From: a virus
Direction: 5' to 3' (one strand)
IMG/VR virus record: IMGVR_UViG_3300010430_000024
Location: 9,647-73,646 of that record
DNA length: 64,000 nucleotides
The notes below the pieces were generated by a model. The model saw only the letters and a list, made by a program, of their open reading frames with translations, had not been told where the DNA came from and made no database searches. Of the stretch, positions 2,994 to 56,300 are shown in pieces; the first letter of the stretch is position 1; the number at the start of each line of letters is the position of its first letter. Position numbers and translations under genes: made by a program.

Positions 2994-3908
2994 TTATGCG
3001 CTTCCAGAACTTCCGAATGCGCCTCGGTAGTCAGACCAACCGAACGTGTAGCGTTCACGCGCTTTGTAACGCATGTTGCCAGTCTCGAAGTCGCCTTCAA
3101 GACCACGTTGGATGTTCTTCCTGACCATGTGCTTCAAGCCATCCGGGCAGTCAGTAATCAAAGTCCACGCACTGGGGTCCGTGAGACGATGATTCTTATG
3201 CGATCCACCGGGGATCATGCCCATCTTCTTCACGGCATTGATATCGTTGTCTGCCGTACCGGGACGGTAAGGAGACATCAACAGCCGCTCAGCGACAAAG
3301 CATAGGTCGGTTGGGATGATTAACTTGGTAGCTCGAACAGCGATAGGGATCGAACGCTCGTCCACGAACTTGCTGATGGCGATCAGAGCTTCCTCAAGAG
3401 AGGTCTCCGACAGGTCAGCCTGTGTCGTAAACGTGTTCGCCTGCGTGCCACCGCCGAAGAGCGGATGCGCCGTCGAGAACAACTCAACTCCGTCACCGCC
3501 CGGATAGGCAGAGTCGTAGCCGTTGTTCAAGGTAGCCGCACCTTTAACTTCCTTGGTGTGCTGCATTGAGCGTGCAAGTGCCTTGGAGTACTTAGAGCCG
3601 AACGATCCATACAGACCATCTTCCTCAGCTTCTTCCGTCAGGGAGAAGGCAAGGGCAATAGTCTCGTGGACATATCGTGACGTGAATGCTTCGCCGCCCT
3701 GATCATAACTGACCGGAGCACCTTCAGGCTTAACTGGAGCACCAGCCAGACCTGCAAGCAACACATCCTCTTCATACGCTTTAGTGGAATTCTCTACCGC
3801 ATAGATAGGTCTCCACTCCTGCTCGTACCTACGAAACTCCAGCCCGAAGACGGTGTTCAAGCCTTCTTGCAAGAGCTTACGAAAACGAGCGCGATTCATG
3901 ATAGCCAT
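2994..3908 (-). CDS. Major capsid protein (HK97 fold)
   Basis: RKLLQEGLNTVFGLE...TIALAFSLTEE...KALARSMQHTKEV...GDGVELFSTAHP...YKARERYTFGWSDYRG. Confidence 0.9.
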   Translation of the reverse strand: MAIMNRARFRKLLQEGLNTVFGLEFRRYEQEWRPIYAVENSTKAYEEDVLLAGLAGAPVKPEGAPVSYDQGGEAFTSRYVHETIALAFSLTEEAEEDGLYGSFGSKYSKALARSMQHTKEVKGAATLNNGYDSAYPGGDGVELFSTAHPLFGGGTQANTFTTQADLSETSLEEALIAISKFVDERSIPIAVRATKLIIPTDLCFVAERLLMSPYRPGTADNDINAVKKMGMIPGGSHKNHRLTDPSAWTLITDCPDGLKHMVRKNIQRGLEGDFETGNMRYKARERYTFGWSDYRGAFGSSGSA

Positions 3909-3920
3909 TATTACGCTCCT

Positions 3921-4511
3921 TTACGTAGTAGGTTTAGCAGCTTCAAGCACTGCTTCGTTGAAGATGACTTCGACCTTGGCGTTCGCACCAATTTCGGCAG
4001 GGAAAATGCCGTCAGGTGCGGTAGCTAGACCGAGAGTCAGGAACTGACCAGTTGCGCCGTACGTCGAATCCAACTGTTGACCGGAGACACCAGTAGCAGC
4101 ATTACCTGCCGTAACGTCTTCCATGTCAGCAGCCAGACCAATATTCGCAGCAGCGATGGTCAGGGCTTGTACTGCGTAAACGATGCCGGGGTCGGTATAG
4201 ACGAACGCCTCAGCAGCTACACTGCCAAGAGTTGCCGTACCGGAAGCCCATTGCTTTTTCCACTGCACGTCGCCTGCTGCATCTGTGTACTGGCAACCCG
4301 CGAATACTCCTAGAACTACCGGAGATGGGGTGCCCTGTGCACCTACGGCAACATCGATGTTCTTACTGGTGCCAGTAAGAATAACAACGTCACCAAGGAA
4401 GATGTCGGACGCGAGAGCAGAAGCAATAGTAAAACCGCCATCGTAACGCACAGTGCCACCCTTGAGGTGGCGAACGGGACTAAACCCGCTTTTTGCGTCG
4501 AGATTTGCCAT
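3921..4511 (-). CDS. Capsid cement/decoration protein
   Basis: MANLDAKSGFSPV...IFLGDVV...GVFAGCQYTD motif, immediately upstream of the capsid gene. Confidence 0.65.
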   Translation of the reverse strand: MANLDAKSGFSPVRHLKGGTVRYDGGFTIASALASDIFLGDVVILTGTSKNIDVAVGAQGTPSPVVLGVFAGCQYTDAAGDVQWKKQWASGTATLGSVAAEAFVYTDPGIVYAVQALTIAAANIGLAADMEDVTAGNAATGVSGQQLDSTYGATGQFLTLGLATAPDGIFPAEIGANAKVEVIFNEAVLEAAKPTT

Positions 4512-6147: not shown

Positions 6148-6546
6148 CTAAATGTGTGCGCGGAACTGAGTCGGGTCTTTAACGATAGCCATAACGCCAT
6201 CGTCATTCATCGATAAGTACTTCACGCCGTTTTTCATGTGGACCTTCTGCCCACCGTAAGTGCCAAACACTATCCAGTCACCAACCTTCGGCTTTGGATC
6301 AACGTCTGCCAGATTGATACCCGAACGAGTGACAGCCTTGTAGCAAAGATTACCCATCGCTACGATCTGTCCGACGTACGTCAGGTACTCTTCTGACTCG
6401 CGTGCAGTCTCAGCGTAGACAATCCCACCAGCTGATTCCTTTGGTGGCTCGTACGGTCTGACAATCAAGCGCCATCCAATCGGTGTGAGCGGCAGCTCTG
6501 CCTCGACCTTTGGAGCTACAAAAGAAACCTCACCCATTGTCGTCAC
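6148..6546 (-). CDS. groES: GroES-like co-chaperonin
   Basis: PIGWRLIV...SAGGI...GQIVAMG...KVGDWIVFGTYGG...MNDDGVMAI (Cpn10 signature). Confidence 0.85.
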   Translation of the reverse strand: MTTMGEVSFVAPKVEAELPLTPIGWRLIVRPYEPPKESAGGIVYAETARESEEYLTYVGQIVAMGNLCYKAVTRSGINLADVDPKPKVGDWIVFGTYGGQKVHMKNGVKYLSMNDDGVMAIVKDPTQFRAHI

Positions 6547-17672: not shown

Positions 17673-18293
17673 CTATGAGTACGACAGGCTTAGCCTGTTG
17701 TCCCAGATGTTATCGAAGTTATCGTTGCCATCAGCAAACACGATAGCGATGTCACCGTCTGACTGCATGGTCAGTCGTGAGATGCGCCATGATGCTGCTG
17801 ATGTGAGTACACCGGGGAGTGCGTCACCACGGTAGGTCACCTCTGGAAATACAGAGGGGTCAATGGTGTCTGATCGAGTTGTTAGTGCCAAGCTGCCCGG
17901 ACTCCCTTGCAAGACCCATGACCCAGTGACCTTGAGATAGATGTCACCGTTGTCTGCGTCAGTGTAGACATCTCCATCGCTACCCAGACCAGCGCCCGGT
18001 GCGCCGTTGCCAACGTAGTGAGTATTGCCATCAGCGCCGTCCTGACCACTAACTCCTGCTGGACCAGCCGCACCATCAGCACCATCTTCTCCCTGCTCAC
18101 CCTGTGGGCCGCGTGGTGGCGTGTCTGATATGAGACCTTCTTCGTACCCTTCCTCATAGGCTGTCCACGAGCCACGGACCACTGATGCGTCGTAAGGGTT
18201 GTCGCGAGGACGACCAAACAAGGCATCGTTGAAGCCGTGGTCGAATGCGATCTTGCGTTGTCCAGAATATGCCAATGACTGTTCCCAATACAC
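17673..18293 (-). CDS. Collagen-repeat protein with RMF-like N-terminus
   Basis: GPQGEQGEDGADGAAGPAG repeats; GSDGDVYTD..NGDIYLK fibre motif. Confidence 0.6.
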   Translation of the reverse strand: MYWEQSLAYSGQRKIAFDHGFNDALFGRPRDNPYDASVVRGSWTAYEEGYEEGLISDTPPRGPQGEQGEDGADGAAGPAGVSGQDGADGNTHYVGNGAPGAGLGSDGDVYTDADNGDIYLKVTGSWVLQGSPGSLALTTRSDTIDPSVFPEVTYRGDALPGVLTSAASWRISRLTMQSDGDIAIVFADGNDNFDNIWDNRLSLSYS

Positions 18294-18444
18294 ATAGGGC
18301 AGCGGTTAAGCTGCCCCTGTTTGTTTGAGTCGCCACCTGTGGCAGGGACTAGGTGTTGATGGCTCAGCACCGTGCGCTATTCGTTACTGATTACTGACCG
18401 CGCTTGATCGCCATCGTTGTGAATCTTATACCATCAGCTGCTAA

Positions 18445-18876: not shown

Positions 18877-19398
18877 TTATCTCCATCCCTTGAGACCGTC
18901 CTCATCTTCTCGTATGCGCTCTCTTGGTGTGTAGGCTGTCGAGTAGTAGTCAGGCTCGTACACCTTGTCAGCAACGATCACATCATCTCCCAGTGAGTTC
19001 ACGCAGCTCCAGTACTCACGCTGCTGAGTGCTCTGTGAGCATTGCTGCTCTAAGGGGCTTTTGGTCCTATCCTGTGCCAGTGTTCCCTCAGTGAGGTGCT
19101 CTGGGTTCTCTATACGGTATCCTGATGCCAGTGACACCATGTTAGGTGTGTCTGCTTGCATAGGGGCTAGGGCTTTACTTGCGTGTCTTGCCAACCAACT
19201 GTAGAACTTCTTGATTGTGACCGTCTCATACTCAGGACCAATGTACCTGATGTTGTTGCCCATGATCTCGAAGATTGATGGACCATAGAACTGCTTGCCA
19301 CTGGGTATCGAGATCATCTTCTGTCCCGGTATCCACAGTCCAGCTGCGGTCATCACACCACCTGCCATCAGTCCCTTCAGTAAGTCTCGTCTGTTCAT
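18877..19398 (-). CDS. Tat-signal protein carrying a homologue of the N-terminal domain of the 851-aa virion protein
   Basis: MNRRDLLK + hydrophobic stretch; FYS..A..A...PM...TPN...Y.I...E.L.EGT matches the start of 12385-14940. Confidence 0.65.
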   Translation of the reverse strand: MNRRDLLKGLMAGGVMTAAGLWIPGQKMISIPSGKQFYGPSIFEIMGNNIRYIGPEYETVTIKKFYSWLARHASKALAPMQADTPNMVSLASGYRIENPEHLTEGTLAQDRTKSPLEQQCSQSTQQREYWSCVNSLGDDVIVADKVYEPDYYSTAYTPRERIREDEDGLKGWR

Positions 19399-19578: not shown

Positions 19579-19821
19579 TTATTCCATCACCCTCATTCCA
19601 ACTACTTCTCGTGTCTCCATCATGGACTTAGCTAATGCCTTCGCATAGCGGTCGCTGATATCACCGTACAGACCCTCATCGATCTCTTCCTCGGTGATTG
19701 TGTACGCCAGCTTCACGCTTTTACGACCGAACTCTGGGAACTTCGGTGCCAGCTTTGATGCCATGGCGACCGTGGCAACACCTGCCACCAGTCCCTGCAT
19801 AAATTTGCGTCTACTTAGCAT
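19579..19821 (-). CDS. Tat-signal peptide fused to a major-capsid-like fragment
   Basis: MLSRRKFMQG...AMA signal; 20/38 ungapped identities to the phage's own capsid segment LAFSLTEE...TKEVKG. Confidence 0.75.
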   Translation of the reverse strand: MLSRRKFMQGLVAGVATVAMASKLAPKFPEFGRKSVKLAYTITEEEIDEGLYGDISDRYAKALAKSMMETREVVGMRVME

Positions 19822-20074
19822 ACGTCCAGTCTTCTGCCATCAGGTCACCCTGAGATGCCAGCCACGGCACAATGGTCCCTTGAGCGTTACGGATATCTAT
19901 GTGTGGCAGGTAATTGATCACAGTGCCCTCTGGGTAGATGCCAAGCAGTGGTGGTCTGTCCACCGTGAACGTACTGCCCGGCACAAGAAAGATGAACTGG
20001 TCTGCACCATTCCATCCCTCTCTGGTCATCCTGTTGCCTTCTTTGATCTCAAATAGTGCGTCTGAAAAATCCAT
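19811..20074 (-). CDS. tad2: DUF2829 / Tad2-family anti-defence sponge
   Basis: MDFSDAL..IKEG....REGWNG...PWLASQGDLMAEDW signature. Confidence 0.8.
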   Translation of the reverse strand: MDFSDALFEIKEGNRMTREGWNGADQFIFLVPGSTFTVDRPPLLGIYPEGTVINYLPHIDIRNAQGTIVPWLASQGDLMAEDWTYAK

Positions 20075-20238: not shown

Positions 20239-20625
20239 TCAGGGTTCTTCATGCGCCTCTCTCCTTGCCTCAATCATTGGTCCGATGTTGCCCTTGCCGA
20301 CGACTTCCGTGTACCGCATAGTCCTCCCCGAAGCGTGATCAAGCACTTCGTTGCGCTCTGCGTGGTACGTTCGCACTCTTCCTGCATCCTTACGACGCGC
20401 ATTAGGTCTCTCGTAGTGGGAGAGTAATCGAGCAGCCAGATGATTGAACGCAGTTCTCTGATTTGTGACACGGCTTTTGCTGGCTGTTCCAATAGCTGTG
20501 ATACCAGTGTCACGATGCGTGATTCGGCAGCAGTTTTCGTGTTTATTTCTGTGTTGTCCACCGCTTCCCTCCCCGGAGTACCACTCCAGTTTGAAATCTT
20601 TTTTTGTGAGGTGTAGCTCATCCAT
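20239..20625 (-). CDS. Truncated class-I release factor-like peptidyl-tRNA hydrolase (GGQ)
   Basis: SGEGSGGQHRNK..CCRITH..TGI...SRVTNQ..A and RTYH..RNEVLDH; lacks stop-codon recognition domain. Confidence 0.85.
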   Translation of the reverse strand: MDELHLTKKDFKLEWYSGEGSGGQHRNKHENCCRITHRDTGITAIGTASKSRVTNQRTAFNHLAARLLSHYERPNARRKDAGRVRTYHAERNEVLDHASGRTMRYTEVVGKGNIGPMIEARREAHEEP

Positions 20626-23285: not shown

Positions 23286-23360
23286 TGGACCCGCTGCCGG
23301 GAGTCGAACCCGGTCTCTCCGCTTTGAAAGGCGTTGACACTCCACAGTGCCTTCAGCGAG
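23286..23360 (-). tRNA. Atypical tRNA-like gene (8-nt anticodon loop; UUC or UCA)
   Basis: Acceptor CUCGCUG/CAGCGGG, U73, CCA; T arm CCGGG-UUCGACU-CCCGG; D stem GGCAC/GUGUC; anticodon arm CGC-CUUUCAAA-GCG. Confidence 0.6.
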
Positions 23361-23412: not shown

Positions 23413-23724
23413 TCATTGTCCTGCCATGATCCTGAGTATCTCTTTGGTGTCCTCTTCGACAAGTTCAACCTGCTCACTGACACGTCCGATCTCAGTCCTC
23501 GCTCCAGTGATTGCGTTCGTGTTCGTTTGGATTGCGCCAGTCATCTGCACGATGGCTGGTTGCTCCAGTGTCTGTGTCTTGATGGCTTTGGATATCTTCG
23601 CATCCAACCATAGCTCGCTGTAGCCAAACATCAGCCCAACAACCACACCATAAATAGGCCAACCCTTGATCATCATCTTGATGATCTCAGCCAGCCTGTC
23701 TACTGCTTGATCTTCGTTGCTCAT
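23413..23724 (-). CDS. Membrane protein with coiled coil
   Basis: One TM segment then heptad-like region. Confidence 0.5.
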   Translation of the reverse strand: MSNEDQAVDRLAEIIKMMIKGWPIYGVVVGLMFGYSELWLDAKISKAIKTQTLEQPAIVQMTGAIQTNTNAITGARTEIGRVSEQVELVEEDTKEILRIMAGQ

Positions 23725-24656
23725 TCATCAGGTTCCTTGTCTTCCCCTTTGTTATAACGAGCATCGAGACGGCGCTTAAATTGTGCGCGGATATCGGATT
23801 GCTTTTTCTCTTCAGCTTCCTGCGCGGCCCGAAGAGCTGCCGCTTCCTGCTTTAGTCGATCAATGTCTTCATCGTCAGTCTCGTGCTTTGCTATCTCCAG
23901 CTTCAGCTCTTCAATTAAGCTCTGCTGTTGGGAGTGACGATACTCACCAAGCTCGACAGCTTCCTCAAACTCTTCTTTCTGCACTGCTTGTGCCATTAGG
24001 TCACTGTACTCAGCCTCATCTATCTGGATCATCCCAGTAGGCACTGGTGCTGGTTGGATGGGTTCGGGTTCAGGGGCGATGGTCGGCATCTCTATGCGCC
24101 GACTCCCACCAAACTCAAACCCAAAGCTACCTCGTACTGCTGTCTCGTCACCAGCTCTACCGACTGATAGTGTCAGTGCAGAGTTGCGTTCGTTATCGAA
24201 CATGTACGCATAGCCAACACCAACACCTGTCGTGTTGTTGATTTTTGCCCCACTAAAGGTAATGCGCTGAGTCTGGTCCTGCGGCAAAAATACCTGCATG
24301 GCTGTCTGTGCTGCTAACGCATCACGTGCTGACTGAATCCATTTATTGTGGATGTTGAATGTGTTGTTGGTGTTAGTGATCCACTCTGTTGGAACCACAC
24401 CATCCTTGCCGTCAATGCCGTCGCGTCCGTCTTTACCATCAATGCCATCAATACCGTCAATGCCGTCGCGTCCGTCCTGCCCATCAGCACCATCAGCACC
24501 ATCAGCGCCATCCTCGCCTTCATAGCCGCAACCATGCTCCAAGAATCGTGGGTGGTCACACTCTTCCCAGTCTGTTGCGTACGCTGCTGACGTGGTAAAC
24601 ATAAACCACGCAACCAACATCAACGCGCCGAGACTAAGCCCCGTCGTCGTCTTCAT
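23721..24656 (-). CDS. YadA-anchor trimeric autotransporter-like protein with collagen-like repeats and C-terminal extension
   Basis: Signal peptide; (G.DG.D)n repeats; ALAAQTAM..LPQ...GVGVGYAY...VRGSFGFEF anchor; start uncertain. Confidence 0.7.
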   Translation of the reverse strand: MKTTTGLSLGALMLVAWFMFTTSAAYATDWEECDHPRFLEHGCGYEGEDGADGADGADGQDGRDGIDGIDGIDGKDGRDGIDGKDGVVPTEWITNTNNTFNIHNKWIQSARDALAAQTAMQVFLPQDQTQRITFSGAKINNTTGVGVGYAYMFDNERNSALTLSVGRAGDETAVRGSFGFEFGGSRRIEMPTIAPEPEPIQPAPVPTGMIQIDEAEYSDLMAQAVQKEEFEEAVELGEYRHSQQQSLIEELKLEIAKHETDDEDIDRLKQEAAALRAAQEAEEKKQSDIRAQFKRRLDARYNKGEDKEPDE

Positions 24657-24773
24657 CAATCCCGTCATCATCAAAGTCCTCGTCGTATTGATAGCACTGT
24701 GCAGTCGCCAGCACCTCAATAAGTTTCTCCAACGCTGGGCTTACCTCCAGCTTTATCGTTATCGTCACATCGC

Positions 24774-26286: not shown

Positions 26287-26370
26287 GGAAGCGTTGAGCA
26301 ACTGGTCGCTCAGCAGACTGTAAATCTGTGCCCTCTGGGATTGTAGGTTCGAACCCTACCGCTTCCACCA
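26287..26370 (+). tRNA. tRNA-Tyr (GTA)
   Basis: GGAAGCG/CGCTTCC acceptor, A73, CCA; anticodon loop CTGTAAA; long variable arm; GGTTCGAACCC T arm. Confidence 0.92.
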
Positions 26371-47326: not shown

Positions 47327-50300
47327 CTATTCCCTCGTTTTTACCAGTGATGCAAGATTCGGCACGGACATGTCGTTCGACACCATCTCCAACAGCTCAG
47401 CAGTAGTTGGTGCATCCTCTTGAATGCGCCTCATGTACGCGACCGAGTTATCCACACCCCACTCGTCAATCAGGTCGATCACCTGACTTGTCTCGATAGG
47501 CTCATCAGTGATCGGGTTGTACTCACCACCCGGTCGCAATTTCCAAGCCTCCTTGAATAACGTGTTGCGTGTCTCTTCAAGAGTGTCAATTTCCTTCTGC
47601 TTCCTATCTCTGAACTCACCATCAGTTTCGCCTTTTTCTTTCTCTTTGTTGATGGTGATCTGCATGATCGCAGTGTTCACGTTTTGAATGTTCTCGCGAA
47701 CATTCTCCAGCGAACTTGCTGCACGAATATATGGAGCATTATCGGTATGGGTCTTGAGATATTCCTCGACGTTACCTTGCTTCTCATGGAACGAGAGCGA
47801 CCCTTGAATCGCAGTAACCTTGTCGAGCATCTCATAAACCTCAGTCTCGTACTTGGTGTTGCGTGGTGGATTGTCACCACGGTTGAATCGACCAAGCACA
47901 GCATAGTCCTGAGTTTCAGGAGATGGTGGCAGCGGGTAGTCAAGCATCCGCTCAACTCCCCAGTCAGCAGCCTGAAGGACGTAACGCCCAATGGTTCCTG
48001 TGTACCCCGCATACAGGTTCTGTAGGTGCATTGGAGACCTGATCTTGCCGCTTATTGTATCCAGCCCTTCTGGCAGTCGCTTCGCCAACTCAATCATCAT
48101 CGGACTGGTACGATAGTTGTACTGGTCAGGAGGAAGCCGCTTGCCTTGGTAGTAGCTGACAATCGGTCTACCCCTGAAGTAGTTCATGTTGTTATTCATT
48201 TCACGGATTGGCGCGATTGTCTGCGGGATCGGACTCATGGCAAACGTCTGTGCCATCATGTGAGCGAACTCTTTCATCAACGTCTTGCCAGCATCAGTCT
48301 CTTGGTCATACCTATAGTTGAAGAACATCTCTGGGATGGTGTTGAAGATAGCGCCAACCTCGAATGGTTTTGGCAGACGGTAATGCGTATCGCCAACCCA
48401 CCAGTGGTAGTAAGCGTGTCGGTCCCATGGCTGTAGGCTCTTGTAACGCTCATCGTCTTTGAACGCTCCGTACAGAGCCAGACCAGCAAGGCTGATCGCT
48501 AAACCCTTAATGGTGAACGCTATTGGGTGCTCCCTTGCGCCTCTTCCGAGACGGTACATGCCCTGTGCGCGAGCATTCATAAACGGCACCGTCTGAATCA
48601 GGAATTGAACCACAGGCCAATCGCCTCCCATGGAGAAGTCCATCAGGTCCTTCGCCTCGTAAGCAGCTCGCTTCTTCGATTTGCCTGCGGCGATGGCAGC
48701 ATTGTAAACAGCCATACGGTTCGAGTTCTCAATCGATGAGCCGAGGTGCATCCATGCCCTGATAAGTTTCTTCGGTGAGTCAAGCACTGAGCCAACAAAG
48801 CCCTTATTCTTCATTGCCTCCTTCAGCATCTTCCTCGTCTGTTGAGGATCACCACCAGTGATGTATCCATTTTCAAACGCTGCTCCTGCGCCCACCAAGG
48901 TACGCATGGTCTCGTCTTCCATGAGCGCCTGACCGAAGCCCTTGATCGCAGAAAGTACAGGTAGGTTGCCCTTATCCCTGCCGATAACAAACGCTGATCC
49001 GGTATCACGAATGAAGTTCGACAGCATGAACGAAGGATCGATTGTGATCAGCGTCGTCAGTAGTCGCTTAGGTGCACGGAACAGGTTGATCCACTCACCA
49101 AAGTGCTTCTTGTTGATCGCGCTGAGGGAGCGATACAGAAGCATGTCGTCGGTGTAGTAGTACTCACGTTTGCCGTCGCGCATGACGCTAACGATACCGT
49201 CACCCTGCGGTGCCTTGAGCGCGAACATCTTCGCCATTCCAGTGAGTGCTTTCTCTGGGAGATCGTTCATGTGGATGCCAGCCTGATCTTCAGGAACGAT
49301 CACGCCCTTCTCGATCAGCACCTTTTTCAGCTGCGCCATCGGGATCATCTCTGGCTTCCAGTCCAACGGCTTCTTCGAGATGATGCCAGAGCCACGCAGC
49401 GCATCAATCGATTCGAGTGCAGCGTTGTTCTTCACGGATGCGTCCACCAGCTTGGTGACGTTCATCATGATGTTGCCAATGATGTCGCTGACGTTCTCTT
49501 TCCCACCACGCAGACGACGAATCGGTGCACGCTGATTCGCAATACCGGATGTTGGTGACATGCCAGAACCAGAAAGCCTGTTGTCGTCAACACGATAGAA
49601 CGGCACGTAATCAGCGCTCTCCCACGTCGGTCTGGTCTCTGCATCTATGATGCCTGACGCTTCACCAAAGTCGAGCATCTTCTTATTGAATGCAGCGTAG
49701 TCTTTTGCTACGCGCTCGAAGTGTGGGAACTTGTCGCCCAGTGCGACCATCGCCTTGAGTTCGTTCGCGCCGAATAGATGCTCACGGCCTGTTCGCGAAA
49801 CTTTGTCAAGCGATTTGGCAGCATCAGCCATGATCTTCTGACGTGCGTTAGCCTCTCCCTGCTTCTTCAAAGCAAGCTCGGTCAGCTTGTCCATGATCGC
49901 GTTGGCTTCAGCTTCAGTCTTAATGCCCTTGCCTTTGAGGTAGGCCCAGCCCATCTTGTATTTCACATAGATGTTTTCGCTGGTGTTCCGGGTATCGGGT
50001 TCACGCCAATTCCAAATCTTCCACCGATGTGTTCCAGCTTTGGCGCGTTTACCGCCAGCCTGCTTTTTCACGTGCGGGAGAAACTCATTGTCCCAGTACT
50101 CTTGCTCCACCTTGGATAGAGCGGCTCGCTCATCCTTAGTTATATGGTCTGGCTTCACTTCCCAGTGGCGCAGAAGTTCTTTATCTGCTTGCAGTGCCAG
50201 AAGAGCCATGATGTTGTCGTTCTCATTGCCGTGATCTACTCCGCTAGATTCGATCATTGCTTGAACGGCATCATCAACTCTCTTCTTCTGTTCAGGTGGT

Positions 50301-53300
50301 AGGTTGCCGTAACCCTCCAACATCAGAGACTTGCCACGCTTGCCTGCCATGTACAGACCCCACGTGTCCGGGTCGCCCAGTATTGGCTGAAGAATCTCAA
50401 GCAAGCCCTTGCCCTCGTTCTGCACAATGCCGTCCTTCCAGACAGGGTTTCCGTAGTACAGGACAGCCTTCATCATTGAGTCCAGTGATGTCGTCAGGCG
50501 AGCGCTTATGTACGCACCATCACTCTCACCAGCAGCATTGAGTGCTCGCCTCAGTCCATAGAACTGATCGACCATACCCTGCCGCATCTCTGCGCCCAGA
50601 CCTTCGCGGAACTCAGCAGCACGTTGCGTTAATGTCTTCGGCTGGTAGCCAACTTTTTTCGCAGCGGTCTTCAGCTTCGGGTCTGTCTTTGGGCTGTAAT
50701 GGAACGGAGCAACCGGACCACTAAACTCTTCACGCATCTTCTCGTTGATCGGGAAGTACATGACCCTCACACCCTCGCGATCAGAGCCGTAGTTCTCATC
50801 GATGTACACATCAAGACGCGATTGAGCATAGCTCTGCTCAGTGAATACGTCCTGCACAACTGGACCCTTCTTGTCACTCATGACAACCCAACCGTGCATC
50901 TCACCAGTAAGCTCAGTGACGTGCAACTTGCCATGATCATCAGCAATCTGCTTGTCCCGATTCGGTGACTTCCGCGTGAACTGACCTTCTTCTTTTGTGG
51001 CCTTGTTCATATCGTTTGCTTTCACATACGTGTCGCTGATATGCACGCCGTACTTCTTCAGTTCCTTGTTCCACATTCGCACAGTGATGTCTTCGTACGA
51101 CTGCCTTGCGCCAGCCAGCTTCGGTCGCCCGTACGTCTCTGAGTAACTACCAACTTGGTCACCGACCATGACGTTGATTAAGCCACCAGCCATCTCTTCA
51201 TCAATCAACCCTTGACTGATGACTTCACCTAAAGGTTCCCCAGTCGGTGGCATCTCATCGCTCGGTCGGCTCGTTCTTCTTCTGCGTGGACGATTTCGTT
51301 GCTCTATGTCCTGAGTAATCAGATCATTGATTGCGGCCTCGTCGTTAGCAAAACCGATGAAGCCATTGTCGGACCTTCGGTGCACCGCAGTTGTGGTCTC
51401 ATTTGTTGTCGAGAGAATGTAATCGTCACGACTTATATTGCCGTCTTCGTCTACTTCTGGCGCAGCAGGCAGCTCTGGTGTTGGTATCTTGCCGCTCTCC
51501 TGCTGATAAATCAGTTTGGCAACATCAGCTCCAAGCACAGGCACCATGCTACTGCGTGATACCACTATCGGTTTTGCTGCCTCTGGGTAACGAATGACAT
51601 AGACCTCCTGCTCTTCGCCACGGATGCCTACGTTCTCTTTGCTCCATGAGATTCGTTTGGTTGGTTGAACACCACTCAAACCCATCCCACCACGAGTTGC
51701 AGATGACAGTCCGTTGTTCCACATCACGCCACCCAACCCACGACGCACTGCGTCAGCGATCAGGTACTTGAGTGCCAGCGGTCTCCACTGGTCATCCTTC
51801 GAGACTGGACTATCCTTATGAACTTGTCCGTAGTTCAGGCGTTTCTTTACTACAACAAATCGCTCGAACACCTTGTCCATCTTCTGCGACTCATCGCTCA
51901 TCATAGCCATGTTCTCGACCATGTTGCCCTTTACGATGTCCCAGTTCGGACCTGCCGCCCCTTCTTCTTCGGTTGCAGGTTCAGGAGTAGCTGGTGCCTC
52001 TGGTCCGAATGCCGCACCAACTGGTGGGGAAAGCTCTTCTTGTTCGTAGTAGTTCTTGATGGCATCAGAAAAGTTCCTCTTAGCGTCATCAAGATCAGAC
52101 TCGTAATCGTGCTCTTCGCCATCGATCATCATGTCATAGGCATCACCAGCTTCCTTGGCAATGATCATTATCTCTACGTAGTTAGTCGGGTCACCATCCT
52201 CATCCCAGCTGACTGGGAGGCTACCTATAACCAGCGCAGTCGGACCCCTCTCGTGCCACTCTTCCCGAATTTGCTCATCAGCCTGTTCACGATATGCGTC
52301 GTCGTCGTACATGACATCTCTGCGATAGTCTTCGCGAGCTTCTGAAAGCGCTTCTTCAGCATCGGAGTTATCCACATCACCGTCTGCATCGATCTCAACC
52401 GCATCACGGTAGGTTTCGCCCTGCCTGCTGACACCTTCGTGATATTGTTCGAGGTTGTCCCAATCGTCCTCGCCCATGTTGTCGTAAGCGTACTGGATGA
52501 TGTCACTGAGGTGCTCGCCATCGTCGTTCATCTCATAGTCGTAATACGACTCGACACCATGATCGCGCATCGTAGAGGTTGCCTCACCATCCACATCTTC
52601 TTCCTCGAAGTTGAATAGCGATTCAAGTTCATCCCAGTCGTAGTCCTGCTCACCGACAAGCGACAGTCCAGACTCGTTGCGACGATGAGTGTCAAGAGAG
52701 ATGCGACGTTTCTCTGCTGCGTGGTTCTCCATCCATGTCTTAACCAGTTTAGGCATCAGGTCTTTTGCTTTTTCTACATCAGCTTTACTGCCTAACACCT
52801 TGACATCAATAAAGTCATCACCTGCTCTGACGGCATCCAGTATCAGCGTGCCCGGTGCAATATCACTGTGTCGGCTGACTCGACTTGGCGAGATAATTTC
52901 TTTCATCAATGAGATTGCGTCGTACCCAGTTCTCATTGCGGTGTTGGCATCATTGAGCACTACGTTCGGGATGCGTACCGTCGCCTGCTCGCGAGTGCCT
53001 AGCCCGGACAATAGCTCAGCTATTCGGTTGGTATCAGCGCCCGTCCTGCCGTAGAGAGTTTCAAGGAACGGCTTCAGCCTGTAGCCAATCATCGGCATCC
53101 GCAACCCTTCGTCGTAGTTGCTGCTGCTGGCTATGCGATCCATGTTCTGACCGAAGTTTCTCTTCAGGACATTGACAGCATCAACCAGCGCTTTCTGAGT
53201 GGAAGCATAACGAAGATCGTTGTGAATGGAATCAATAACCTTGTTCAGCTCACCTCTCATTGAGATAGCAATTCGGTTCATTGCTTTGCCGTCGAGGTAC

Positions 53301-56300
53301 TCAAAGCCACGAGCATCCATCGACCCTGCGATCTCAGCATCAGTGATCTCTGTAATTGTTTCCTCTACGCCATCACGAGCATCGCTGAGCATCTCTTTAA
53401 TCTTGTCGAGTTCCTCAACAGTATGGGTCTTCCAGACCTCTCTCTTCTGGTCTGCGGATAAGTCTTCCCATACGTCACCAGTTTGCGTAACCGCACGTTC
53501 ACGCAGAGAACTAAAGGCTGTTCCAGTCATGCCCTCGGTTGATCCATCTGGCAAATTCAGGATAGGTTTAAGGGTGTCATTCACGACCTGCCAAATGTCC
53601 TGACTCACGCCACGACCGAACTGATCGCCCACCATGTTAAGGAGGTTGCGTTTCTCGGTGTACTCCTGATCGACCTCAGCCTTCTCGTTGCCACTTGCGA
53701 AGCCCTTGCGTAACTTCTGCAACCAGTCAGACTGGAGTTCGATGAGCGACAACAGCTTGCCCTTCATCCTTTCATTCGGAAACTCCAGCTCTGGCATTCC
53801 ATCAAACTCAAGCAACTCGGCAACGCCAGTACGGATGTGCATGAGGTTCGCTTCATAATGCCCGGTGTAGCCCATCTCGCCACCACGACCTTCACTCTTG
53901 ATCAGGGCAACACGAAAGTCCTGCGTGTAACGCGAACCCTGTGGCGACCACTCAGAATACTCAGTGGTATGAGCTGCCCAATCAAACCAGCGATCCAAGT
54001 CCTTGTCGTAACCGATGTTAAAGCCTTTGGCGCGGGTCTTCTCACGCTCAGCTTTGATCATCTCCTTCTGTTCATCAGTTAGATTGTCTATCTCTTCGTC
54101 GGTCAGCTTGCCAAACAATCTGTCCAGCGCATCCGTGTAACTCATGCGCTGGTAATCACCTTGCTGGTCAGCGTAAATGCGGTACGCATTTTCAGACAAC
54201 ATGTGAGCCTGCATCAGCTCTTTGGTTAGTTGAGTCTTCTTCGGGTTTAGCTTCTGCGTCATGATCTCGGTAATCCGAGTACGCATCATTTCAGGGGTGG
54301 CTTCATTGACTCGCGGTCGATATTCCTCGCCCTGCATTTCCTTGAGCGGCCCAACCATGAGCGTCTTTTCCATGGCCTCATTGATCGCTTTCAGCTCAGC
54401 TGTCACATCAGCTGGGAAGATACCCTCGTACCAACCAGTCGGCGCAGTGCCACCGTGCATTTGCTGCATGTAGCGTTCGAGCGTGCCATAGGTGCCATCA
54501 CGGAATAAAGAGAAGTCTGCCTTGTCGCTCAAACCGGACAGCTCCAGTTCGCGCACCGTCATGTACTTTTCTTTCTGCGCCTTGATGATCAGCTGCTTCC
54601 AGTTGTTTGGTGTAGCAGAGTCAGGGAATAGTGGCACCTCATCAGGCACGTTCTCTTTGCCGCCATAGCGCTTCGCCAGCTCGTTCTTCTCTCGGTTGCT
54701 GGGCTTGAACGTCGCTGTGTTCATCGCGGTAACAAGACCAGCTTGGAAGATGTCACGATCACGTACAAACGGCTTGGTCGTATCTTCGAGTGGGGTCCAC
54801 TTGAACCCATCCGCATGACGAACAAAATCTCTCGACCGAGACAACAGGTCCTGCACGCGACTGTCGTTCCAGAAGTTCTCCTTTGTCTCGTGGATGGAGA
54901 CGAACTTCTTCACTGGCGCGTAACGGTCCATGTTCCGCTTCATCATGATGCCCTTGATCCACGCAACGAACCGCGCCCAAACGCTCTTCTGTTTCTTACT
55001 GAAGTCCACCTGACCAGCTTTCACCTGACCAGCAAGATACGCCACCATCTCTTCACCAAGCAGTTGCTTGTGGTCAGGTTTGCTCTTGTCCAGACCGAGG
55101 GTGCTGGCATAGTAATCAGCAAGTCGTGGGAATGAATCAACGAGATCGTGCATGTACGTGCGCAGCTCAGCCTCATTGCCGAACATGCCGCGTACGCCAT
55201 AGTGACCAATCAACTCATGCCAGACGGTCTCCATGATTCCAGTTTCGTAGTTCGAGCTGCCAACAGACGCTGTTACGTGTGCCGGGAAAATGAAGACTCC
55301 ATTCTCCGGGTTGAGATGATCCATGTAGCCGCGAACACCACTGAAGTTGCTGCCACCCAGCTCATCTTTGATCTGCTGCACGACGGATGGGTATTCTTTT
55401 TTCAGCGAATCCAAATCACGAACGATGTTGATCTTCGGCAGGTTGGTCATGCCATCGGTTAGCTCTCTCGCTATCCTTACTGCAATCGCGATCTGCGTGT
55501 CGTTCGCTTTCTTCTCAACAGGCATGTACGGAATGGTCGGGTGATAATTCATCTCCGGGTGAGCGTCCATCCACCATGGCACTGGTGTCTCGTACTCGAA
55601 GTCATCCGCAAGATCGGCAATTATCTCATTGTTGCTGAACAGGCTCCCAATATTTATATCAACCAGAGTTTGCGGAAGCGTCTGTCGATCTGGGCGAGCA
55701 TAATCAGCATCACCAGTGATCCATGCAAGGTCTGCTTTGTCCATGCCTTTCGGAATGATCAGGTGGTTACTGCTCGGATTGAATAGGAACTCTCTGCCCT
55801 GAACATTGACCTTCACTCTCGCACGACCACGCTTGTTCGAGATGTTCGTGATCACACCATCAACAGCTCCATCAGGGGTTAATATCTCTGCCACATCACC
55901 GCGCTTAACCTTATGACTTACTCGATGCCAGTGACGTGGCAATGACTCCTTATCAAGCTGGAATAAACCCTGCTGTGCCCGGTGTCTGTAGGTAGCTGCT
56001 TTCTTCTTACGAGATGCGACGATGCCGCGAGCCTGACGATCCTGCTTCATGGTCAGGGACTCAGCATCAGCACTCTGGTAATCCTCGCCCTTGCCCCACG
56101 TGATCTGCGGTGTGACAACATCCTCGCCTGCGATGACCTCAGTCTCCGACAGTTCAGTAGCCGCTGCCTGCATAGCAGTCTCCAGCGCCTCCTGAGAGGC
56201 TCCAGTTACTGCGAACTCGTCACCACCTAACCGGAAGACCTCTACGCCTGCCTGCTTGCTTAGAGCGTCTGAGACAGCCAGTAGCAGCCGATCTCCAGCT

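Follow-up and report, generated by a model that had tools for sequence, protein, structure and literature searches.

What use could a phage have for a small protein that joins an export-type leader to a piece of a capsid protein? The question is raised by an 80-residue protein, here called P0002, encoded in a stretch of viral DNA of 64,000 nucleotides (the window), which corresponds to bases 9647-73646 of the IMG/VR record IMGVR_UViG_3300010430_000024; CheckV rates this 73,646-base record as complete. The major capsid protein of the same phage, P0001, is also encoded in the window. The initial annotation had described P0002 as a leader for twin-arginine translocation (Tat) fused to a fragment of the phage's own capsid protein, selected at the protein level and encoded in overlap with a tad2 anti-defence gene. 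The places where capsid proteins are generally taken to function are the cytoplasm and the particle, and no others. Such a combination would mean either that capsid-like surfaces serve phages at the envelope or that the Tat pathway is exploited in a way not described so far. Our preferred reading, to which we would give about an even chance and which draws on comparisons of sequences, is that P0002 is exported and acts outside the cytoplasm, at the envelope, imitating the periphery of the capsid and the surface through which capsid subunits meet.

The similarity between P0002 and P0001 extends over most of the small protein. BLASTP aligned P0002 residues 11-80 with capsid residues 50-128 (27/79 identities, E 7e-13), and the core of P0002 (residues 34-75) aligns with capsid residues 82-123 without a gap. 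The ungapped match of 20/38 identities given in the initial annotation was recounted by eye with the same outcome, its capsid side being encoded at 3540..3653 on the minus strand. When P0002 was compared with the 579 open reading frames (ORFs) of at least 40 amino acids in its own 73.6-kb genome, the capsid protein was its sole non-self match (E 1.35e-10). In a profile comparison by hhalign, one subfamily of P0002-like proteins matched 25 capsids with a probability of 99.2% (E 6.5e-20) over capsid residues 73-131, in line with the proposed capsid-derived body. A tblastn search of GenBank phages with P0002 led to capsid genes only, through query residues 31-80, and the look-alikes of P0002 in the ESM Atlas were fragments of Mu gpT capsids. 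P0001 itself matches Pfam Phage_capsid_4 (44.4 bits, cut-off 27) and Mu-like gpT, as well as a PHROG of major head proteins.

The capsid models of Pfam and PHROGs gave no match to the 80-residue P0002, in which only the counterpart of capsid residues ~73-131 is represented and not the full fold of HK97-type capsids. Judging from these alignments, P0002 is a derivative of the capsid protein and not a member of its family. From the topology of the HK97 fold, capsid residues 73-131 would comprise the end of the E-loop, the next strand of the P-domain and the long spine helix. The profile of the 25 capsids found Mu GpT-domain capsids among solved structures weakly (E 0.052, profile positions 163-220), a match that is unusable for mapping the segment. 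No other stretch of these capsids is as well conserved as the one kept in P0002, and the helix positions A-L-A-x-S-M-x-x-T-K-E are conserved alike in 47 small proteins and 12 capsids. A predicted complex of the capsid protein with mature P0002 (score 0.00, mark 0.32) has no bearing either way.

Ahead of this body, P0002 begins with M-L-S-R-R-K-F-M-Q-G; the two arginines (RR) are followed by an uncharged stretch of 16 residues, and by eye a triplet A-M-A can be seen directly before S22. The motif S-R-R-K-F-M-Q fits the form (S/T/N)-R-R-x-F-L-K near the N-terminus, in agreement with the leader type first proposed. Of two curated Tat models, the leader passes TIGR01409 of NCBIfam (18.4 bits, cut-off 16.7) but not PF10518 of Pfam (see below). 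The relatives of P0002 provide the stronger argument. Among 124 short proteins collected from two protein searches, 78 have a run of 12 or more uncharged residues near the N-terminus, and this stretch is directly preceded by RR in 64/78 and by KR, RK or KK in none. Of the remaining 14, 12 are capsid fragments and two are gene calls that begin too late, at an inner methionine; for one of the latter (L007) the DNA encodes M-N-R-R upstream. RR is found in 64/64 scored leaders; their uncharged stretch after RR measures at least 13 residues in 58 of them and 12 in the other 6, with a median of 16 and a mean hydrophobicity of ~1.8. The pattern N-R-R-x-F-L-K-G persists across subfamilies whose hydrophobic cores diverge widely. 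The tally of 64/78 is the fair count of RR, since the invariance of RR in our 42-row alignment A2 proves nothing alone, the rows having been chosen for RR. In their polar residue followed by R-R-x-F-L-K, their moderately hydrophobic, uncharged core of 12-25 residues, the basic residues near the end and the small residues at positions -3/-1, P0002-type leaders resemble bacterial Tat signals (TIGR01409/PF10518), such as those of SufI and AmiA. By these features the leader is of the twin-arginine type, and we infer that it is cleaved after A-M-A.

Might such a short ORF nevertheless be a decaying duplicate or a spurious frame without function? Apart from its length, one could point to an antisense ORF (19694..20056, plus strand) that overlaps it and to the public gene call, which begins at Met8 and thereby leaves out RR. 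However, six pairwise comparisons among the window, L007, L008 and L009 gave a ratio of nonsynonymous to synonymous substitution rates (dN/dS) of 0.17-0.32 for the whole ORF, as expected under the protein-level selection that had been suspected. For the leader (first 22 codons) dN/dS was 0.06-0.21 in five pairs, the sixth being saturated, and for the ORF after the leader 0.31-0.52. At synonymous sites the leader has diverged strongly (dS 0.57-1.8), and what is conserved in it is therefore the protein and not the DNA. Furthermore, dozens of divergent relatives share the architecture, the N-terminal M-N-R-R is retained in the relatives of P0002, and the antisense ORF spans two genes. Judged from these relatives, the true start of P0002 is the upstream methionine. 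P0002 is a real gene under purifying selection, and the idea of a dead remnant, whose chance we regard as very slight, is effectively refuted.

The family around P0002 is large and uncharacterised. A word-indexed search returned 11 close homologues of 74-102 amino acids with 58-76% identity, and among 1.84 billion cluster representatives a profile matched 208 proteins at E<=1e-3, 23 of them at E<=1e-10. Proteins of up to 230 amino acids with an RR leader accounted for 54 of the best 150 representatives of 50%-identity clusters, so that the combination of a Tat-type leader with a partial capsid recurs, as the initial annotation had asked to be checked. The rest of these 150 were mostly full or partial capsids, matched at approximately residues 78-128; they also included some long proteins of repetitive sequence, which we take for low-complexity matches. 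No cultured phage with the family was found at the sensitivity of tblastn in 50,697 GenBank phage records: P0002 and P0040 met capsid genes only (9 and 13 records, respectively), 80% or more of the query being covered at none of these places, and P0003, a neighbouring protein with a similar leader (see below), had no match in the same records. A scan of viral contigs with the single P0002 protein gave no match; the locus searches used narrower alignments, the 42-row alignment being too diverse. The genome-contig scan yielded two metagenome-bin contigs only, with no host. The nearest cultured phages with the capsid type of P0001 infect Roseobacter, Pelagibacter, Caulobacter and Alcaligenes, which suggests a Gram-negative host and no more than that.

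When and from which capsid gene did P0002 arise? In a tree of 45 shared columns, P0002 sits among the small proteins and P0001 among the capsids; the labels change 3 times, compared with 11.2 in shuffles, and 0/500 shuffles were as low. This tree is poorly resolved, with no starred branch, and the approximately unbiased (AU) test neither rejects a single clade of small proteins (p 0.438) nor thereby proves it, so that a recurrent origin of the small proteins was not upheld. P0002 scores 114 against its own capsid and 123, 120 and 117 against the capsids of three other phages. Nor did cognate-capsid mimicry stand, as 6 small proteins compared with 6 capsids showed no consistent preference for their own. 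Of the description as a fragment of the phage's own capsid, the capsid derivation is upheld, while a recent copy of the phage's own gene is contradicted by both the tree and the scores. These comparisons identify P0002 as an old paralogue of P0001 rather than as recent debris. Its relatives retain various pieces: P0027, P0038 and P0125 contain a copy of the capsid C-terminal strand ahead of the helix, P0108 (221 amino acids) continues from the helix into the C-terminal part of the capsid, and others possess a G-D-G-V-x-L...H-P strand or the E-loop. The helix is the only piece common to all of them. A capsid origin of the C-terminal W-D...F-L-H-V-E-G extension of some relatives was not confirmed, hhalign having aligned the core alone.

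The small gene was observed in 21 places, namely the window and 20 further loci; within each of the pairs L027/L028 and L030/L031 the small proteins are identical and their surroundings match, so that each pair may represent one phage and fewer than 21 places may be independent. The large terminase gene (TerL) is visible together with the small gene in 15 places, and in every one of them the small gene is the upstream one, with both on one strand. It abuts TerL in seven loci (L021, L026-L031), is separated from it by one small ORF in L017 and lies 8.6 kb upstream of it in the window. Homologues of a 184-amino-acid gene and a PKD-like 135-amino-acid gene of the window stand just upstream in 10 and 11 loci, respectively. 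The typical order runs from the small terminase, over some distance, to the 184-amino-acid gene, the PKD-like gene, the small gene, the large terminase, the portal, a GroES-like gene, the head genes and the capsid. This order places the small gene in the packaging and head block rather than in a variable island. Only 3/21 places (the window, L009 and L019) have a Tad2-like gene near it. A full capsid gene accompanies the small gene in 5/5 larger records, and the small gene is missing from 5/5 more distant phages with the same capsid type, one of which is 100% complete. Since 0/5 of these distant phages carry it, the small gene is a feature of one lineage that the capsid type does not generally need.

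Several observations concern the same block. One collagen-repeat gene separates P0002 from the terminase in the window, within a stretch of ~8 kb that is missing in the relatives with an abutting terminase. In the seven loci where the small gene abuts TerL, its end carries the tail S-G-E-G-A-R-R-x-V-G-x-x-G-S-P-D-R-I directly before the TerL start. In L017 the same S-G-E-G-A-R-R...S-P-D-R-I tail is found on a separate ORF (1629-1853), and it therefore belongs to the position upstream of the terminase and not to the small protein; it could be a translation signal for the terminase or a terminase-binding tail. Between the portal and head genes of the window lies a gene for a GroES-like co-chaperonin (6148..6546, minus strand; PHROG 3188, E 3.2e-15), whose homologues hold the same position in many relatives. 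Its position suggests folding of the capsid protein with the GroEL of the host. A putative scaffold protein is encoded at 3921..4511.

Two ORFs of the phage's own genome have a leader of the kind described, P0002 and P0003; a third match of the leader pattern lies inside a helicase gene in another frame. A capsid origin of P0003 was rejected (hhalign probability 1.6%), and the ESM Atlas provided nothing usable for it. The P0003-type leader, with an invariant L-W-x-P-G...I-S-I-P after its core, is carried by at least four unrelated C-terminal cargos (P0187-P0190) and also by the capsid-fragment proteins P0031 and P0158. Conversely, the P0002-type leader is found on unrelated cargos in P0163, L018:1889-2494 and L038:7684-8268. 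P0002 thus belongs to a modular group of phage proteins that have leaders of this kind in common. The set with P0003-type leaders looks like a set of polymorphic leader-tagged proteins. P0002-like and P0003-like genes abut or overlap in L007 and L009; in the window a 60-amino-acid ORF, missing at the equivalent position in these two loci, stands between them.

In four loci (L010, L011, L018 and L025), the small gene is immediately followed by a gene for a second protein with an RR leader, here joined to a piece of the capsid E-loop. This piece, G-F-G-L-A-x-x-K-x-E-G...Y-D, matches capsids at residues 50-78 (hhalign probability 93.3%, E 2.7e-7), and L038 combines it with the helix piece in one protein under a single leader. 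In HK97-type shells the E-loop of one subunit rests on the P-domain of its neighbour. The relatives therefore have export-type leaders on the pieces from either side of a subunit contact. Further ORFs with RR leaders and no capsid similarity were seen at L010:8982-9329 and L038:11825-12166.

Such evidence induces us to propose the following scenario for the exported mimic. P0002 would be read together with the packaging and head genes, and during infection the Tat translocase of the host would recognise the RR leader and export the protein. Removal of the leader after A-M-A would leave a mature peptide of ~58 residues in the periplasm or at the outer face of the inner membrane. There, the ~55-residue remnant of the outer part of the capsid protein, a strand and a long helix, might present the surface that meets the E-loop of a neighbouring subunit. 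Its partner may be another exported leader protein, an E-loop fragment in the relatives and perhaps P0003 in the window, and P0002 probably works together with such proteins. As for the role at the envelope, our guess, made by analogy, is the exclusion of related superinfecting phages or the control of lysis.

A number of points weigh against this scenario. P0002 scores 17.0 bits against the Pfam model PF10518 (TAT_signal), below its cut-off of 22.7, and TIGR01409 remains below its own cut-off for P0003 (14.0) and for the family members L003 (14.9) and P0008 (15.8). Unlike usual Tat signals, the leaders of this family have a very short N-terminal region, with RR at residues 3-4 in most members, and in P0002 the leader precedes a tiny capsid-derived passenger. 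The part after the core is conserved beyond what is normal for a signal peptide, as S-K-L-A-P-K-F-P in the P0002 subfamily and, likewise strongly, as L-W-x-P-G...I-S-I-P in the P0003-type leaders, which hints at an extra or a different role of the leader. The phage encodes no TatA, and export would require a host that has Tat. Finally, the suggested part in exclusion or lysis is a guess that draws on the likeness to small exported phage proteins.

A bolder form of the proposal, which we consider rather unlikely, takes the tandem genes literally: Tat would export two complementary halves of the subunit-contact surface, the E-loop and the strand with the helix, from separate genes. Tat translocates folded proteins and complexes, and the fragments could for this reason drag binders along. 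They might carry out of the cytoplasm something that binds newly made capsid protein, for instance a capsid sensor of the host. Alternatively, a capsid-like surface might be rebuilt outside the cytoplasm, trapping parts of superinfecting relatives.

Other explanations start from the same leader and the same piece of capsid, and they differ in where the protein would work. One would keep P0002 at the cytoplasmic face as an assembly factor that docks on subunits or proheads through the contact between E-loop and P-domain, the leader serving as a tether to the membrane or to the Tat receptor, or else carrying the capsid protein along. The placement of the gene among packaging and head genes, the helix face shared by small proteins and capsids, the complementary E-loop piece of the relatives and the full capsid gene in every tested record with the small gene would all suit such a factor. 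Its chance is low in our view, as the positive-inside rule predicts that, with RR at the N-terminus ahead of a hydrophobic core, the capsid-like part would come to lie outside the cytoplasm, and none of the five distant phages that share the capsid type, including the complete one, has the small gene. A slightly smaller chance goes to a decoy against host defence, in which a capsid sensor of the host would bind the fragment and be tethered at the membrane or exported as a hitchhiker by way of the Tat leader. This idea comes from the initial annotation, which also considered a dominant-negative inhibitor of the assembly of competing phages. Tat does move folded proteins and complexes, the best-conserved stretch of the capsid would make a natural epitope, and Tad2-like genes, of an anti-Thoeris kind, overlap P0002 in the window and lie near the small gene in L009 and L019. 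Capsid-sensing defences are indeed known; one review names CapRel-SJ46 and CBASS as being triggered by capsid proteins (PMC13728456). However, the Tad2-like neighbour in 3/21 places has to be set against the packaging and head block in 15/15 places with TerL visible, so that the context speaks mildly against an anti-defence island. Moreover, the small protein does not track the capsid sequence of its own phage, as a cognate epitope mimic might, a plain decoy could equally trigger the sensor, and the unrelated cargos behind the same leaders would be left unexplained.

These cargos are what a further alternative accounts for, according to which the conserved N-terminus is a head-targeting tag and not an export signal, by which variable small cargos would be packed into the head and delivered to the next host on ejection. 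T4 internal proteins share a capsid-targeting sequence on polymorphic small cargos, their genes lying near head genes, and a conserved N-terminal tag on polymorphic cargos, encoded among head genes and beside anti-defence genes, is a T4-like arrangement; that the conservation reaches past the hydrophobic core would fit as well. The strict RR that is never replaced by lysine, the persistent N-R-R-x-F-L-K and a core of the right length but free-varying composition are, on the contrary, hallmarks of Tat signals and not of an amphipathic helix, and the P0002 leader passes the cut-off of TIGR01409. We consider head targeting improbable, and we set aside an equally small share for some explanation not listed here.

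How does the proposed mimic compare with known systems? Mu gpT/Phage_capsid_4 capsids of the HK97 fold share with P0002 the conserved helix face and the homology to residues ~73-131, whereas P0002 comprises ~55 of 304 residues, is without the N-arm, most of the E-loop and the A-domain, and bears an export-type leader. Capsid paralogues or peptides with a separate role are known from T4, namely the vertex protein gp24 and the Gol peptide sensed by Lit. Like P0002, gp24, Gol and the capsid triggers of CapRel-SJ46 and CBASS are pieces or copies of a capsid protein with a life of their own in the interplay of phage and host; in contrast to what is proposed for P0002, they act in the cytoplasm or the shell, and they are not known to have a signal peptide or to be encoded by a separate conserved fragment gene. 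The T4 internal proteins resemble the P0002 leaders as conserved N-terminal tags on varied cargos, but the P0002 tag has Tat features. Small exported proteins serve phages in exclusion and lysis control, as do Imm, Sp and RI of T4 and the lipoproteins Cor and Llp. These are small and envelope-directed, as proposed for P0002, but they are of the Sec, lipoprotein or signal-anchor type and not derived from a capsid.

Our literature searches brought up no paper in which a phage protein of capsid origin bears a Tat signal. The passages of the review PMC13728456 considered here do not mention a capsid decoy. We rate an export-type leader on capsid pieces, often in tandem genes over both contact sides, as lying outside any known kind of system. 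If the paired export of both contact halves were true, phages would have a form of counter-defence or exclusion that is new to the literature. Apart from P0002, the modular leader marks further cargos that are probably sent to the envelope, and could thus provide a handle on exclusion, lysis and counter-defence proteins in uncultured phages of marine sediments. Because leader and cargo are both short, dependence on Tat can be tested directly.

Positions of P0002, its capsid counterpart and neighbouring features in the window, with E-loop-piece genes of related loci given in locus coordinates
Feature	Position	Strand	Remarks
P0002, small ORF with leader and capsid-derived body	19579..19821	-	80 codons + stop = 80 aa
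P0002 leader, residues 1-22	19756..19821	-	RR = residues 4-5, bases 19807..19812
P0002 capsid-like core, residues 34-75	19597..19722	-	strand-like stretch, acidic loop, helix
P0001, major capsid gene, 304 aa, paralogue of P0002	2994..3908	-	Pfam, PHROG
Capsid segment homologous to P0002, residues 82-123	3540..3665	-	sequence alignment
P0003, 173 aa, second protein with twin-arginine-type leader	18877..19398	-	
60-aa ORF between P0002 and P0003	19395..19577	-	tightly packed, no family match
Tad2-like gene immediately upstream of P0002	19811..20104	-	Pfam PF11195, 80.9 bits, cut-off 25
Terminator-like hairpin downstream of the cassette	18296..18317	-	consensus match only
E-loop-piece genes	L010:8675-8992, L011:806-1105, L018:4250-4534, L025:1124-1486		RR leader + E-loop piece

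The genes around P0002 are densely arranged. Its first 11 bases lie inside the end of the Tad2-like gene, which is the overlap noted in the initial annotation. Its stop lies one base before the start of the 60-amino-acid ORF, which in turn overlaps the start of P0003. The 60-amino-acid ORF, P0003 and a 104-amino-acid ORF had no match in Pfam or PHROGs. Two genes upstream of P0002 is a gene for an RF-1 domain protein, similar to peptidyl-tRNA hydrolases and release factors (20239..20625, minus strand; Pfam 55.2 bits, cut-off 35), and collagen-repeat, tail-fibre-like proteins flank the cassette on both sides (17673..18293 and 23721..24719, both on the minus strand).

We would also like to comment on some features in the rest of the window. 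A Ro60-like protein is encoded at 37893..39563 on the plus strand (Pfam TROVE 134.6 bits, Ro60 vWA 202.4 bits); the Rfam scan of the window at gathering thresholds found no Y RNA and only a tRNA. This is a tRNA-Tyr (23286..23360, minus strand), reported by both ARAGORN and Rfam. ARAGORN also called an odd tRNA-like gene with a two-base anticodon at 26287..26370 on the plus strand. An ORF of 3941 amino acids (47327..59152, minus strand) has its matches in PHROGs without an assigned function, together with a weak one to a DarB-like antirestriction family (E 3.6e-8). Near it, with a 468-amino-acid ORF of no family in between, is a match to a 'DNA ejection protein' (60587..61600, minus strand), and the 3941-amino-acid protein is probably a virion protein that is ejected. 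Finally, a YqaJ-type exonuclease (39793..40737) is paired with a RecT-like recombinase (41042..41965), both on the plus strand.

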